IMG/VR virus record: IMGVR_UViG_3300027974_000031
Span: 1-64,000 of that record
Reading direction: 5' to 3' (one strand)
Source of the DNA: a virus
Lineage: Duplodnaviria; Caudoviricetes
DNA: 64,000 nucleotides
Shown piece after piece: positions 44,463-61,534 of this stretch. Numbering within the stretch: the first letter of the stretch is position 1; each line of letters starts with the position of its first letter. Below the pieces are notes generated by a model. It was given only the letters and a program-made list of their open reading frames with translations. It was not told the origin of the DNA and made no database searches. The position numbers and the translations under genes are program-made.

Positions 44463-44912
44463 TTAATCTTTAATACGAAAGTTTTTTACATTCAATCCTA
44501 GTTTATCTGCGACTTCCTGTAATGTCAATTCGATAATTTTTGGTCGGTTATCAATGATAGTTCCTTTTGAATTTTCAAAATAGATTTCATTACCATTCAA
44601 GTCATACTCATGCTTAATCCAATATCCATCTGAATATTCACAATAAATTTGTTTACCATTCAAGTTATACTCACGCTTATTACAAAGTCCATCTGAGTTT
44701 TCATAATAGATTTCTTTTCCATTCAAATTATACTCACACTTATTCCAAAATCCATTTGAGTTTTCAGAATAGATTTGATTACCATTCTGATCATACTCAC
44801 GCTTAATCCAATATCCATCTGAGGTTTCAGAATAGATTTCTTTATTATCTTTATTTTTAATAAAGAATGGAAAATCTTTTACTTTTAATAGTTGTGCAAT
44901 TGTTTCTTTCAT
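44463..44912 (-). CDS. 21-aa-repeat paralogue, array 1 (149 aa)
   Basis: Same caps and repeat consensus. Confidence 0.9.
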   Translation of the reverse strand: MKETIAQLLKVKDFPFFIKNKDNKEIYSETSDGYWIKREYDQNGNQIYSENSNGFWNKCEYNLNGKEIYYENSDGLCNKREYNLNGKQIYCEYSDGYWIKHEYDLNGNEIYFENSKGTIIDNRPKIIELTLQEVADKLGLNVKNFRIKD

Positions 44913-44924
44913 AATTTTATTTTT

Positions 44925-45437
44925 TTAATCTTTAATACGAATGTTTTCTACATTCAATCCTAATTTATCTGCGACTTCCTGTAATGTCAATTCAATAATT
45001 TTTGGTCGGTTATCCATGATAGTTCCATCTGAGTTTTCATAATAGATTTGATTACCATTCTGGTCATACTCACACTTATTCCAATATCCATTTGAATCTT
45101 CAAAATAGATTTCATTACCATTCAAGTTATACTCACACTTATTCCAATATCCATTTGAATCTTCAAAATAGATTTGATTACCATTCTGGTCATACTCACG
45201 CTTATTCCAAAATCCATTTGAGGTTTCAGAATAGATTAAATTACTATTCTGGTCATATTCATGCTTGAACCAAAGTCCATCTGAATCTTCATAATAGATT
45301 TGATTACCATTCTGATCATACTCACACTTATACCAAAATCCATCTGAATATTCACAATAGATTTCATCTTCATCTTTATTTTTAATAAAGAATGGAAAAT
45401 CTGTTATCTTTAAAAATTGTGCTATTGTTTCTTTCAT
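44925..45437 (-). CDS. 21-aa-repeat paralogue, array 1 (170 aa)
   Basis: Same caps and repeat consensus. Confidence 0.9.
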   Translation of the reverse strand: MKETIAQFLKITDFPFFIKNKDEDEIYCEYSDGFWYKCEYDQNGNQIYYEDSDGLWFKHEYDQNSNLIYSETSNGFWNKREYDQNGNQIYFEDSNGYWNKCEYNLNGNEIYFEDSNGYWNKCEYDQNGNQIYYENSDGTIMDNRPKIIELTLQEVADKLGLNVENIRIKD

Positions 45438-45450
45438 AATTTTATTTTTT

Positions 45451-45963
45451 TTAATCTTTAATACGAATATTTTCTACATTCAATCCTAGTTTAGCTGCAA
45501 TCTGTTCTAAAGTTAATTCAATTACCTTTGGTCGGTTATCAATGATAATTCCATCTGAGTTTTCAGAATAGATTTCATTACCATTCTGATCATACTCACG
45601 CTTAGACCAACGTCCATCTGAATTTTCAAAATAGATTATGTTACCATTCTGGTCATACTCCCACTTAATCCAATATCCATCTGAATCTTCAGAATAGATT
45701 TCATTACCATTCTGGTCATACTCAGTCTTAAACCAATATCCATCTGAATCTTCACGATAGATTTGTTTACCATTCAAGTTATACTCACACTTATACCAAA
45801 ATCCATCTGAATCTTCACAATAGATTTCTTCTCCATTCAAGTTATACTCACACTTATACCAAAATCCATCTGAGTTCTCATAATAGATTTCATCTTCATC
45901 TTTACTTTTAATACAGAATGGAAAATCTGTTACCTTTAAAAATTGTGCTATTGTTTCTTTCAT
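45451..45963 (-). CDS. 21-aa-repeat paralogue, array 1 (170 aa)
   Basis: Same caps and repeat consensus. Confidence 0.9.
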   Translation of the reverse strand: MKETIAQFLKVTDFPFCIKSKDEDEIYYENSDGFWYKCEYNLNGEEIYCEDSDGFWYKCEYNLNGKQIYREDSDGYWFKTEYDQNGNEIYSEDSDGYWIKWEYDQNGNIIYFENSDGRWSKREYDQNGNEIYSENSDGIIIDNRPKVIELTLEQIAAKLGLNVENIRIKD

Positions 45964-53263: not shown

Positions 53264-53571
53264 TGGTCTTTCGCCTGTGACTCGAACACAGATAAACGGT
53301 TTCTGGTTTGTGTTTATTTCTAAACTCCCTAGACTATATCATAATCCTATTACTAGGATTTCGGAGGCTATTGAGACTTATTGTTTTCTTACTCATTCCC
53401 TAGTCGTTGAACCTTCTTGTTACTTTTTAGAATTCACAAGCTCGGCTGCTGATTGCCTTCATCATTACATGTTCAGGTTTCCAGCAATTCTTCCGATTTT
53501 CGATTAACATTACTGTTAAAAGTCACTATTTTATAATGAAACCGCCCCTTTCACCTTTAAGGTAGCGAAAG
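53264..53571 (-). tRNA. tRNA with CAU anticodon (probably Ile2), split by a group I intron
   Basis: Exon 1 53571-53536 and exon 2 53302-53264 splice to CTTTCGC TA CCTT-AAAGGTGA-AAGG G GCGGT-TTCAT|AA-ACCGT TTAT CTGTG-TTCGAGT-CACAG GCGAAAG A CCA. Confidence 0.88.
53303..53535 (-). mobile_element. group I intron (233 nt) after anticodon position 36
   Basis: P AATTGCTGGAAA, Q AATCAGCAGCC, R GTTCAACGACTA, S ATGATATAGTCT; exon ends in U paired to G in P1 (TCAT/GTGA); intron ends in G. Confidence 0.9.
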
Positions 53572-53943: not shown

Positions 53944-54405
53944 TGGTCCCCTTGACAGGCCACGATCCTGCACATTCTTACGAATATCAGATTTTAAGTC
54001 TGCATCACAACTACGGTTTTCACCGCCATAAACGTTTAATTTGTAATTACTTACATTTCAAGTTTTACCGTTTTGTTTGTGTGCTGGACTATGCTTTCAT
54101 CTTTTAGTTTATTTCTAAATTAGATGGGTGATTATAGTCTCTGCACGTCTCCTTATATTAACCTTATCTCCTAGTCTGGATAGTAACTGATAACATAAGG
54201 CTTTATTAATTACACCATACTAGATTTAACGTCATTTAAGATTTCGCTCAACGTTGGGAGTTTTAGAGTTTTACGGACTTTTACCGTCATTTATGCGCTC
54301 TTGCATACATCTAAAATTAACCGTTCATTGAATTTACACCATTTAGATATAGATTTCTCTATAAATGCACCGTTATAATGCGTCTGCCAATTCCGCCACA
54401 AGGGG
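53944..54405 (-). tRNA. tRNA-Leu(UAA), split by a group I intron in the anticodon stem
   Basis: Exon 1 54405-54378 CCCCTTGTGGCGGAATTGGCAGACGCAT; exon 2 54002-53944 CAGA-CTTAAAA-TCTGA, variable arm, GCAGG-ATCGTGG-CCTGT CAAGGGG A CCA. Confidence 0.88.
54003..54377 (-). mobile_element. group I intron (375 nt) between tRNA positions 27 and 28
   Basis: P AAATTCAATGAAC, Q AACGTTGAGCG, R GTGCAGAGACTA, S AAAGCATAGTCC; P1 GCAT/GTGC with U.G at the splice site; terminal G. Confidence 0.85.
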
Positions 54406-54758: not shown

Positions 54759-55397
54759 TTATATTTTCTTTTGGTAAAATTTGTGTCTAACTACAGTTTC
54801 TAAATTAGTTTTTTCAGCAATCATGGGCAACATCTGGTGTCTAACCCAATTTCTTTGATATTTTAAATCATTGTTTGTTGGATCAAATACCACCCATTTC
54901 ATTAAATCGTTTTTCTCTGCCCATTCTACCATCTGTTCTTTGGTTGTCAACAAAAAAGGATGATAAATCGTAAAATTGGGAAAAATAGTTTTTTCCTGAA
55001 TTGGTTTATATTCTGGACAACCCTTGAGGAAATTCATAAAAAATTGTTCTACACAATCTCCCAAATTATGAGCAGTCACATAATTAGTATGCCCTGTTTG
55101 TTCAGCCATATAGGCCAATCTCCATTGTCTGAAATCGTTTTCGGTCTGCTCACCTATAGATTGCTCTACCGACCTTGTAATAAATTGGAATGGTAAACTA
55201 TGCGCCGAACAAAAGTCTCTAACTGATTCTTCCATTTGTTTATTAGCAGGTTGCCAATTATGGTTAAAATGAAGAACCTTGATTTTTAATCTAGTTCTTT
55301 GGCTTAACCAGTGACATGAAGAAATAGAATCAACTCCTCCACTAACAAGGAAAGTATATTCTTTTTGCTTATCTAATAAATTATTAAAAATTTTCAT
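54759..55397 (-). CDS. tilS: tRNA(Ile)-lysidine synthetase (minimal PP-loop domain)
   Basis: VSGGVDS PP-loop, HFNH, R..R, TAHNLGD..E.F.MN..KG, HPFL, DPTN.D..Y.RNWVRH; likely start MKIFNN at 55397. Confidence 0.9.
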   Translation of the reverse strand: MKIFNNLLDKQKEYTFLVSGGVDSISSCHWLSQRTRLKIKVLHFNHNWQPANKQMEESVRDFCSAHSLPFQFITRSVEQSIGEQTENDFRQWRLAYMAEQTGHTNYVTAHNLGDCVEQFFMNFLKGCPEYKPIQEKTIFPNFTIYHPFLLTTKEQMVEWAEKNDLMKWVVFDPTNNDLKYQRNWVRHQMLPMIAEKTNLETVVRHKFYQKKI

Positions 55398-55499
55398 TTC
55401 TATTCTTGTTGTCAAGCAAATGTTGCTCAAATTCAGTTAACTCGCTGTCCGCAAGGTAGATAAAGGTCATGGCTCAATATACTTCGATTTTATAATCTG

Positions 55500-60160: not shown

Positions 60161-60610
60161 TTAATCTTTAATACGAATATTTTCTACATTCAATCCTAGT
60201 TTATCTGCGACTTCCTGTAATGTCAATTCAATTACCTTTGGTCGGTTATCCATGATAGTTCCATTTGAATCTTCAAAATAGATTTCTTTTCCATTCAAGT
60301 TATATTCACGCTTAGACCAATATCCATTTGAATCTTCATAATAGATTTGATTACCATTCTGATCATACTCACACTTATTCCAAAATCCATTTGAGGTTTC
60401 AGAATAGATTAAATTACTATTCTTGTCATATTCATGCTTGAACCAACGTCCATTTGAATCTTCACGATAGATTTGATTACCATTCTGATCATACTCACAC
60501 TTATACCAAAATCCATTTGAATCTTCATGATAGATTTCTTTATTATTCTTATTTTTAATAAGGAATGGAAAATCTTTTACTTTTAATAGTTGTGCAATTG
60601 TTTCTTTCAT
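60161..60610 (-). CDS. 21-aa-repeat paralogue, array 2 (149 aa)
   Basis: Same caps and repeat consensus. Confidence 0.9.
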   Translation of the reverse strand: MKETIAQLLKVKDFPFLIKNKNNKEIYHEDSNGFWYKCEYDQNGNQIYREDSNGRWFKHEYDKNSNLIYSETSNGFWNKCEYDQNGNQIYYEDSNGYWSKREYNLNGKEIYFEDSNGTIMDNRPKVIELTLQEVADKLGLNVENIRIKD

Positions 60611-60622
60611 AATTTTATTTTT

Positions 60623-61072
60623 TTAATCTTTAATACGAATGTTTTCTACACTCAATCCTAATTTATCTGCAATCTCTTCTAAAGTCAATTCAATAATTTT
60701 TGGTCGGTTATCCATGATAATTCCTTTTGAATCTTCATGATAGATTTGTTTACCATTCTGATCATACTCACGCTTAAACCAATATCCTTTTGAATCTTCA
60801 TGATAGATTACTTTTCCATTCAAGTTATATTCACGCTTATACCAAAATCCATTTGAATCTTCAAAATAGATTTCTTTACCATTCAAGTTATACTCACACT
60901 TAATCCAAGATCCATCTGAATCTTCGAAATAGATTTGATTACCATTCTGATCATATTCATGCTTGAACCAATATCCATCTGAATCTTCAGAATAGATTTC
61001 TTTATTATTCTTATTTTTAATAAAGAATGGAAAATCTGTTACCTTTAAAAATTGTGCTATTGTTTCTTTCAT
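60623..61072 (-). CDS. 21-aa-repeat paralogue, array 2 (149 aa)
   Basis: Same caps and repeat consensus. Confidence 0.9.
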   Translation of the reverse strand: MKETIAQFLKVTDFPFFIKNKNNKEIYSEDSDGYWFKHEYDQNGNQIYFEDSDGSWIKCEYNLNGKEIYFEDSNGFWYKREYNLNGKVIYHEDSKGYWFKREYDQNGKQIYHEDSKGIIMDNRPKIIELTLEEIADKLGLSVENIRIKD

Positions 61073-61084
61073 AATTTTATTTTT

Positions 61085-61534
61085 TTAATCTTTAATACGA
61101 ATGTTTTCTACATTCATATCAAGTTTATCTGCAATCTCTTCTAAAGTCAACTCAATAACCTTTGGTCGGTTATCAATGATAGTTCCTTCTGAGTTTTCAT
61201 AATAAATTACGTTACTATTCTGGTCATGTTCACGTTTAGACCAATATCCATCTGAGTTTTCACGATAGATTAATTTTCCATTCTGGTCATATTCATTCTT
61301 ATTCCAATATCCTTTTGAATCTTCAAAATAGATTTCTTTACCATTCTGGTCATATTCACGCTTAATCCAGTATGCATCTGAGTTTTCATAATAGATTTCT
61401 TTTCCATTCAAATCATACTCTTTTTTAAACCAATATCCATTTGATTTTTCAGAATAGATTTCTTTGTTATTCTTTTCTTTGATAAGAAAAGGAAAATCTG
61501 TTATTTTTAAAAATTGCGCGATTGTTTCTTTCAT
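61085..61534 (-). CDS. 21-aa-repeat paralogue, array 2 (149 aa)
   Basis: Same caps and repeat consensus. Confidence 0.9.
   Translation of the reverse strand: MKETIAQFLKITDFPFLIKEKNNKEIYSEKSNGYWFKKEYDLNGKEIYYENSDAYWIKREYDQNGKEIYFEDSKGYWNKNEYDQNGKLIYRENSDGYWSKREHDQNSNVIYYENSEGTIIDNRPKVIELTLEEIADKLDMNVENIRIKD

Follow-up and report, generated by a model that had tools for sequence, protein, structure and literature searches.

In the available text of PMC4033280, the introns of bacterial tRNA genes are described as lying beside the anticodon. The largest survey (Williams 2020 preprint, 10.1101/2020.01.27.920355) catalogues 5292 introns of bacterial tRNA genes, which fall into 21 settings, using methods that test eight anticodon-loop positions only. 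Its names Leu.3Ug, Arg.5Ug, Ile2.5Ug and fMet.2Ug agree with the statement, made in a preliminary description of the DNA treated here, that the classic sites lie in the anticodon loop. In tmRNA, group I introns occupy four T-loop subsites according to the accessible part of PMC11915505, and the 2014 review PMC3984707, in the portion available, assigns every phage group I intron known at that time to a protein gene. In a full-text literature search, with most subscription journals outside its scope, no published tRNA group I intron turned up at a site other than the anticodon loop.

The locus considered here lies in the window (the whole stretch of 64,000 nt that was analysed), which belongs to a 75-kb IMG/VR virus record whose completeness is put at 29%. 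The window encodes a portal protein (phrog_213, E 1.5e-86) and is thus derived from a tailed phage. On its minus strand, a tRNA-Leu(UAA) gene is split in the anticodon stem, and all elements of the preliminary description are present where it had placed them (Table 1). From sequence comparison it is quite probable that the insert between U27 and C28 is an ORF-less group I intron of the tRNA family, most likely self-splicing by two transesterifications. No ORF longer than 54 aa occurs in the insert on either strand. Just upstream of the tRNA-Leu gene, an ORF (54759-55430, minus strand) has a weak PHROG match to a QueC-like protein of the queuosine pathway (phrog_1550, E 5.7e-7). At 44463-45963 and 60161-61534 (minus strand), runs of neighbouring ORFs that differ little in length (149-170 aa) have the look of tandem paralogues. 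A promoter scan returned 8 sites, against 10.4 expected.

Anatomy of the split gene and its joined product

The 5′ exon comprises the 5′ strand of the acceptor stem, the D arm, A26 and U27, and ends in ...GACGCAU. The insert ends in ...GUGAUG, its last base being G54003. The 3′ exon carries the anticodon hairpin (28-42) with the loop CUUAAAA intact, followed by A43, the long variable arm, the T arm, the 3′ strand of the acceptor stem and CCA. The first anticodon base therefore comes 7 nt after the junction, which is outside the 7-nt anticodon loop. When the exons were joined in silico by coordinates, ARAGORN recognized the 87-nt product as tRNA-Leu(taa), with ...GACGCAU at the junction followed directly by CAGACUUAAAA. 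The product is a canonical class II tRNA-Leu with a long variable arm, a 7-nt loop CUUAAAA and a 5-bp anticodon stem from U27-A43 to A31-U39 (UCAGA/UCUGA), the first pair of which, U27-A43, is created by the ligation. The claim that the loop is intact and that joining the exons restores the stem is borne out by this valid product.

Table 1. Positions of the split tRNA genes of the window and of the predicted helices of the 27/28 insert
Feature	Position	Strand	Remarks
Neighbouring tRNA(CAU) gene	53264..53571	-	split at the classical 36/37 loop site
Neighbouring group I intron, 233 nt	53303..53535	-	exon UCAU against guide GUGA; Rfam 79.4 bits
Whole split tRNA-Leu(UAA) gene	53944..54405	-	87 nt exon, 375 nt intron, encoded CCA
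5′ exon, 28 nt	54378..54405	-	tRNA positions 1-27 and one extra D-loop base
Putative group I intron, 375 nt	54003..54377	-	between U27 and C28
3′ exon, 59 nt	53944..54002	-	C28 to A76; starts CAGACUUAAAAUCUGA, ends in encoded CCA
P1	54367..54381	-	exon G54381-U54378 with guide G54370-C54367 (GCAU/GUGC); loop 54376-54372
P2 hairpin	54348..54363	-	6 bp (54363-58 with 54353-48), GAAA loop
P3 5′ strand GGUG	54337..54340	-	pairs with CACC 54130-54127
P4	54332-26 with 54253-47	-	7 bp; region 54247..54332, encloses P5
P5	G54322, G54321 with C54257, C54258	-	extended P5a/b/c three-way arm
P6	54241-38 with 54153-50	-	region 54150..54241; insertion of ~85 nt
P7	G54141 and 54139-35 with 54091-86	-	region 54086..54141; GACUA/UAGUC and a G-C pair, read from sequence
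P8	54126-22 with 54102-098; inner 54119-15 with 54107-03	-	within P7, as is the P3 3′ strand
3′ domain	54003..54083	-	CACAC 54083-79, extra hairpin, P9, GUUGUG 54011-06, AU, terminal G54003
P9 hairpin	54025-21 with 54016-12	-	GAAA loop

Three rules served to place the junction: the U before the break had to pair with a G in a P1 adjoining P2, the intron had to end in G, and ARAGORN had to accept the joined product. Among about 850 combinations of a 5′ break after T with a 3′ break after G, 27/28 is the sole canonical tRNA-Leu junction under these rules. ARAGORN is permissive as a junction test and accepted several neighbouring joins of the same kind, so the choice was made by the P1, terminal-G and canonical-stem rules and not by ARAGORN alone. 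The position is also marked by uninterrupted genes: when the joined tRNA was compared with viral loci that contain an unsplit tRNA with the same or a nearly identical anticodon arm, 69 of 71 BLAST alignments spanning the junction were gapless, the best match (L094) being identical at 41 of 42 positions. A 5′ splice site shifted downstream by one base, so as to follow U54377 paired to G54371, would give an 88-nt product with an extra U between 27 and 28. Such a product is also accepted by ARAGORN, GCAUU/GGUGC can form 5 bp with two adjacent U.G pairs, and the introns of three relatives split at the same site (L435, L442 and L438) likewise start with U. However, in the 88-nt product the anticodon stem is bulged, the uninterrupted tRNA-Leu genes align gaplessly to the 87-nt join, and in a further relative (L254) the first intron position is C, so that U27 forms its only U.G pair. 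A shifted site is therefore considered highly improbable, and the junction is taken to be 27/28.

Some features of the tRNA itself are unusual. The T loop (T arm, window 53955-53971, minus strand) reads AUCGUGG, with A at 54 and U at 58, swapped from the usual U and A, and the acceptor stem opens with a C1-G72 pair; the function of this tRNA is thus not certain. The tRNA-Leu of a relative with its intron at 33/34 (L258) has the T loop AUCGUGA, with the same swap at 54 and 58.

The group I core and its family

The insert contains the core helices P3-P8, including P7, by which group I introns are generally recognized. P7 is the guanosine-binding helix. At the 5′ splice site, U54378 forms a wobble pair with G54370 in P1, which U54377.G54371 may lengthen, and the intron ends in G54003 (omega-G), two bases past the 3′ helix strand as in its relatives; both the terminal U of the 5′ exon paired to G and the terminal G had been noticed in the preliminary description. 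The 5′ partner of the strand that precedes the terminal G is ambiguous in the window, where the 3′ domain has an extra insert. P10, read from the sequence, amounts to at most one pair (C28 with G54371). In the row of the window in the model alignment described below, all model pairs are formed in P3 (4/4), P4 (7/7), P5 (2/2), P5a (3/3), P6 (4/4), P8 (5/5) and inner P8 (3/3), and 6 of 8 model positions are paired in P2. A minimum free energy fold (z -2.57) recovers P2, the P5 and P6 arms, P7/P8 and P9. The same fold proposed a 9-bp helix (54380-54372/54011-54003), which was dropped because by eye it is not conserved in L254 or L442. Placement in subgroup IC3 would follow the label that the literature gives to tRNA introns.

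General-purpose finders do not report this gene. ARAGORN, run on the raw window, returned tRNA-Arg(tct) and tRNA-Tyr(gta) only and neither split tRNA gene, and Rfam at gathering scores returned one tRNA and the neighbouring intron only, the split tRNA-Leu and the 27/28 intron being absent. Since both ARAGORN and the Rfam tRNA model miss it, the split tRNA-Leu gene is invisible to standard finders, as had been anticipated. The intron mode of ARAGORN and the pipeline of the Williams preprint, with its eight loop positions, see loop introns only. Counts of phage tRNA genes are accordingly underestimates, both split tRNA genes of this window having escaped ARAGORN. The Rfam model RF00028 (Intron_gpI) aligned to the insert over 54389..54078 (model positions 1-253) with 26.2 bits (E 8.2e-4 for the 4 kb searched), short of the cut-off of 50, and this score taken alone does not establish membership.

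A model of the family gave a higher score in the covariance-model check that had been proposed for the 375-nt insert and its group I core. A 17-nt core motif from the window retrieved 20 stretches from viral contigs, of which 14 are situated in tRNA genes, 5 in or beside protein genes, and 1 is fortuitous. From six short relatives (L258, L242, L257, L252, L259 and L260), with the window and L254 excluded, a model with a 46-pair structure (R1) was built. R1 matched the insert with 92.9 bits (E 2.9e-23 in the 64-kb window) over model positions 1-210; P3-P8 are paired, and P7, read from the sequence, is identical in the window and all six seed sequences. The true P9 and last strand of the window form a separate R1 hit of 17.4 bits, the extra insert having caused a misalignment of the 3′ end. 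The same model gives 110-152 bits for phage introns at the classical 34/35 site (L256, L251 and L261). The neighbouring 36/37 intron reaches 36.7 bits with R1, compared with the 92.9 bits of the 27/28 insert, so the two introns of the window are not close relatives. Over 100 sources R1 gave 29 matches. In an alignment of 26 distinct sequences (A3; 46 pairs, 1086 cells), 93.1% of cells are paired, compared with 63.0% after shuffling, and changes on both sides occur at 42 of 46 pairs; none of 500 shuffles reaches the observed values, and slid controls are 36-45% paired, although the fitting of the alignment to the model favours such pair counts. Homology and structure thus support the identification of the insert as a group I intron.

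Close kin of the same core also occur elsewhere. Four loci (L246, L248, L255 and L241) have it in or beside protein-coding genes. In blastn searches of 50,697 GenBank phage records, the split gene of the window had no match, and the intron of L258 matched 68 records through its core alone (no more than 38% of the query). Among the L258 core matches listed, 13 of 15 lie under protein-coding genes (DNA polymerase, thymidylate synthase, HNH) and 2 under no annotated feature.

Recurrence of stem sites and evidence from other samples

The split tRNA genes of the family fall into four site classes. At the classical 34/35 site, introns were found in tRNA-Leu(UAA) (L256, L251, L261 and the second introns of L260 and L296), tRNA-Arg(UCU) (L259) and tRNAs with anticodon UAU (L260 and L296), and at 33/34 in tRNA-Leu (L242, L243, L257 and L258) and tRNA(CAU) (L247). 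Two tRNA-Leu genes are split at 25/26 (L252 and L271), and the window and L254 at 27/28. A metagenome scan with a pattern for the 3′ junction gave 16 loci, 8 of which R1 matches; it added L440 and L429 at 25/26, and L435, L442, L438 and a 3′ fragment (L432) at 27/28. Two pairs of loci (L444 and L254; L443 and L271) agree in the stretches compared and have matching R1 scores, and each pair was counted once. In all, 27/28 is represented by five complete genes, that of the window included, plus a partial one, and 25/26 by four. Thus the search of phage genomes for the same site, suggested in the preliminary description, yielded four further complete genes and one partial one. The tRNA bodies of these 27/28 relatives, including the fragment, differ from that of the window. 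The relatives were fetched by patterns derived from the family itself, so the census is biased and incomplete.

At each site the guide tracks the exon. For 27/28, the exon (C)GCAU is matched by the guide GUGC(G) in the window, L254 and L435, and CACAU by GUGUG in L442 and L438, a compensatory double change from G-C to A-U. The exon GACAU is matched by GUGUC at 25/26, and GACU by GGUC at 33/34. P1 involves residues 24-27 in the window and 23-27 in L435, L442 and L438. In relatives from each of the four site classes the terminal G stands two bases past a covarying strand (ACCAC/GUGGU, ACUAC/GUAGU, GUAAC/GUUAU), the partner of which sits just 3′ of P7. All 5′ exons at 27/28 and 25/26 end in CAU (the window, L254, L435, L442, L438, L252, L271, L440 and L429). 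This shared CAU, which also precedes the neighbouring 36/37 intron of tRNA(CAU), hints at the retargeting of a CAU-guided intron. Two other loci (L260:4665-5202 and L296:1259-1935) each have two adjacent split tRNA genes, for the UAU anticodon and Leu-UAA, both interrupted at 34/35. With two split genes side by side there as in the window, split tRNA genes cluster in these phages.

The insertion had been called an independent and unusual invasion. The location in the stem stands, and the site is not unique to the window; as to independence, the intron trees lack resolution and do not reject a clade of the window with L254, which has the same site (p-AU 0.435), so that one invasion of 27/28 is not separable from two. 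Scans of viral contigs for the anticodon arm (at least 119 and at least 120 stretches) gave no further split gene among the matches listed, which were uninterrupted tRNA genes and chance non-tRNA matches. The pattern GGTGTAAATTCANNGAA gave 84 stretches (68 unique) and no new tRNA intron; many lack the P7 strand, none gave a tRNA, and among the new loci R1 recognized L296 only. A scan of genome contigs with the 3′-junction pattern gave 87 stretches, and R1 matched none of the 80 loci listed, a result that, given the narrowness of the pattern, does not show absence from bacteria.

The stretch with the split gene occurs in freshwater and lake metagenomes. A contig of 7689 nt from one run (X1) covers the whole of it, though this run may be the source of the window. 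In a DNA run from another study (X3), a diverged contig spans the whole split gene with both junctions, with 9 substitutions and 11 gap letters; one of the changes, from A67 to G in the acceptor stem, keeps a wobble pair, U6.G67. Another relative in X3 has a 15-nt hairpin in place of 54150-54241 (the P6 insert) and a P5 arm reduced to 6 nt, replacements that fit the helix assignments. These contigs bear on the concern that the insert was joined to the tRNA gene by misassembly, which might be raised because the record is derived from a metagenome and only an estimated 29% complete. The X1 contig covers the whole stretch, the diverged X3 contig from a separate study crosses both junctions, and the same arrangement recurs in independent viral and metagenome contigs; the probability of a chimera is regarded as practically negligible.

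Contigs from two lake metatranscriptomes (X4 and X16), RNA libraries of two studies, cover the interior of the intron, one at 54108-54365 (depth 56.7) and one at 54070-54365 (depth 6.3), and one of the libraries also has a 233-nt contig on the neighbouring intron (53300-53532). None of these contigs joins the exons; they cover the intron interior only, and the lack of cover over exons and spacers is not evidence. Such libraries may hold DNA, and the ends of contigs are not ends of RNA. The contigs of both studies stop at 54365, 12 nt inside the 5′ end of the intron and directly after the guide, which is a weak hint at most.

An intron that no longer splices, or never could, within a passively carried tRNA-Leu pseudogene would agree with several of these observations: the RNA-library contigs give no direct evidence of splicing, P1 is short (4 exon pairs) and P10 weak, the Rfam score falls under the cut-off, and the T loop is odd. 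Set against this are the intact core helices, U.G wobble and terminal G, and exons that still form a perfect cloverleaf. Moreover, five complete genes with diverged exons and peripheral arms keep the site, with P1 maintained by compensatory change, and the change from A67 to G in the variant strain preserves the pair U6.G67. A dead relic is therefore judged improbable, and a splicing-competent intron remains the preferred interpretation.

Proposed splicing and comparison with known systems

By analogy with the family, from which the order of steps is taken, free guanosine would attack after U27, G54003 would then enter the guanosine site in P7, and the 3′-OH of U27 would attack the bond between G54003 and C28. 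The complete anticodon hairpin would ride on the 3′ exon. Because P1 uses the 3′ strand of the D stem together with residues 26 and 27, the D arm presumably cannot form while P1 exists. As no homing endonuclease is encoded, the intron probably descends together with its tRNA gene and does not owe its distribution to such an enzyme.

A bolder model, which is unlikely, would have one ORF-less family of group I introns in phage tRNA genes retargeted between four or more tRNA-Leu(UAA) sites (25/26, 27/28, 33/34 and 34/35), with little changed beyond the guide, perhaps by reverse splicing after ...CAU. At both non-loop sites P1 would sequester the 3′ strand of the D stem and leave the tRNA body unfoldable until splicing; as a switch, splicing might then determine when the phage tRNA appears in the course of infection, or protect it from host enzymes acting on tRNA. 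More generally, the locus suggests that an intron of the self-splicing type can live in a tRNA stem, with D-stem bases serving as the 5′ exon helix. Phage tRNA genes carry group I introns, in contrast to the protein genes to which the available portion of the 2014 review PMC3984707 confines those then known. With nearly identical ribozyme cores directed to several positions within a single small RNA, the relatives form a natural series, which could be useful for studying how guides are retargeted and for engineering trans-splicing or circularizing ribozymes.

The introns in archaeal tRNA genes at non-canonical positions resemble the present case in that stems and arms outside the anticodon loop are interrupted (PMC4033280, PMC4090602); they are removed by a splicing endonuclease acting on a bulge-helix-bulge, whereas the insert of the window has a complete group I core. 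The T-loop introns of tmRNA, as far as the accessible part of PMC11915505 describes them, likewise occupy a non-anticodon site in a tRNA-like domain and show the same mapping of U(-1) and terminal G as the window; they interrupt a loop of tmRNA in bacterial chromosomes, whereas the window has a stem of a tRNA interrupted in a phage.

Closer still are the introns of tRNA anticodon loops. In the Azoarcus tRNA-Ile(CAU) intron, CAU pairs with GUG. This 36/37 type (Ile2.5Ug), to which the intron of the neighbouring tRNA(CAU) gene belongs by its exon UCAU and guide GUGA, shares with the 27/28 intron a 5′ exon ending in CAU and a guide starting with GUG, but CAU is the anticodon in the former and residues 25-27 in the latter. 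The classical 34/35 intron of tRNA-Leu(UAA) has the same type of host gene, lacks an ORF and follows the same U.G and terminal-G rules; its core is of the same family as that of the window, judged with R1 on phage 34/35 introns. It lies in the loop with the guide GAG against the exon CUU, whereas the 27/28 intron lies in the stem with GUGC against GCAU, and only in the latter, whose host is a phage, does P1 consume the 3′ strand of the D stem.
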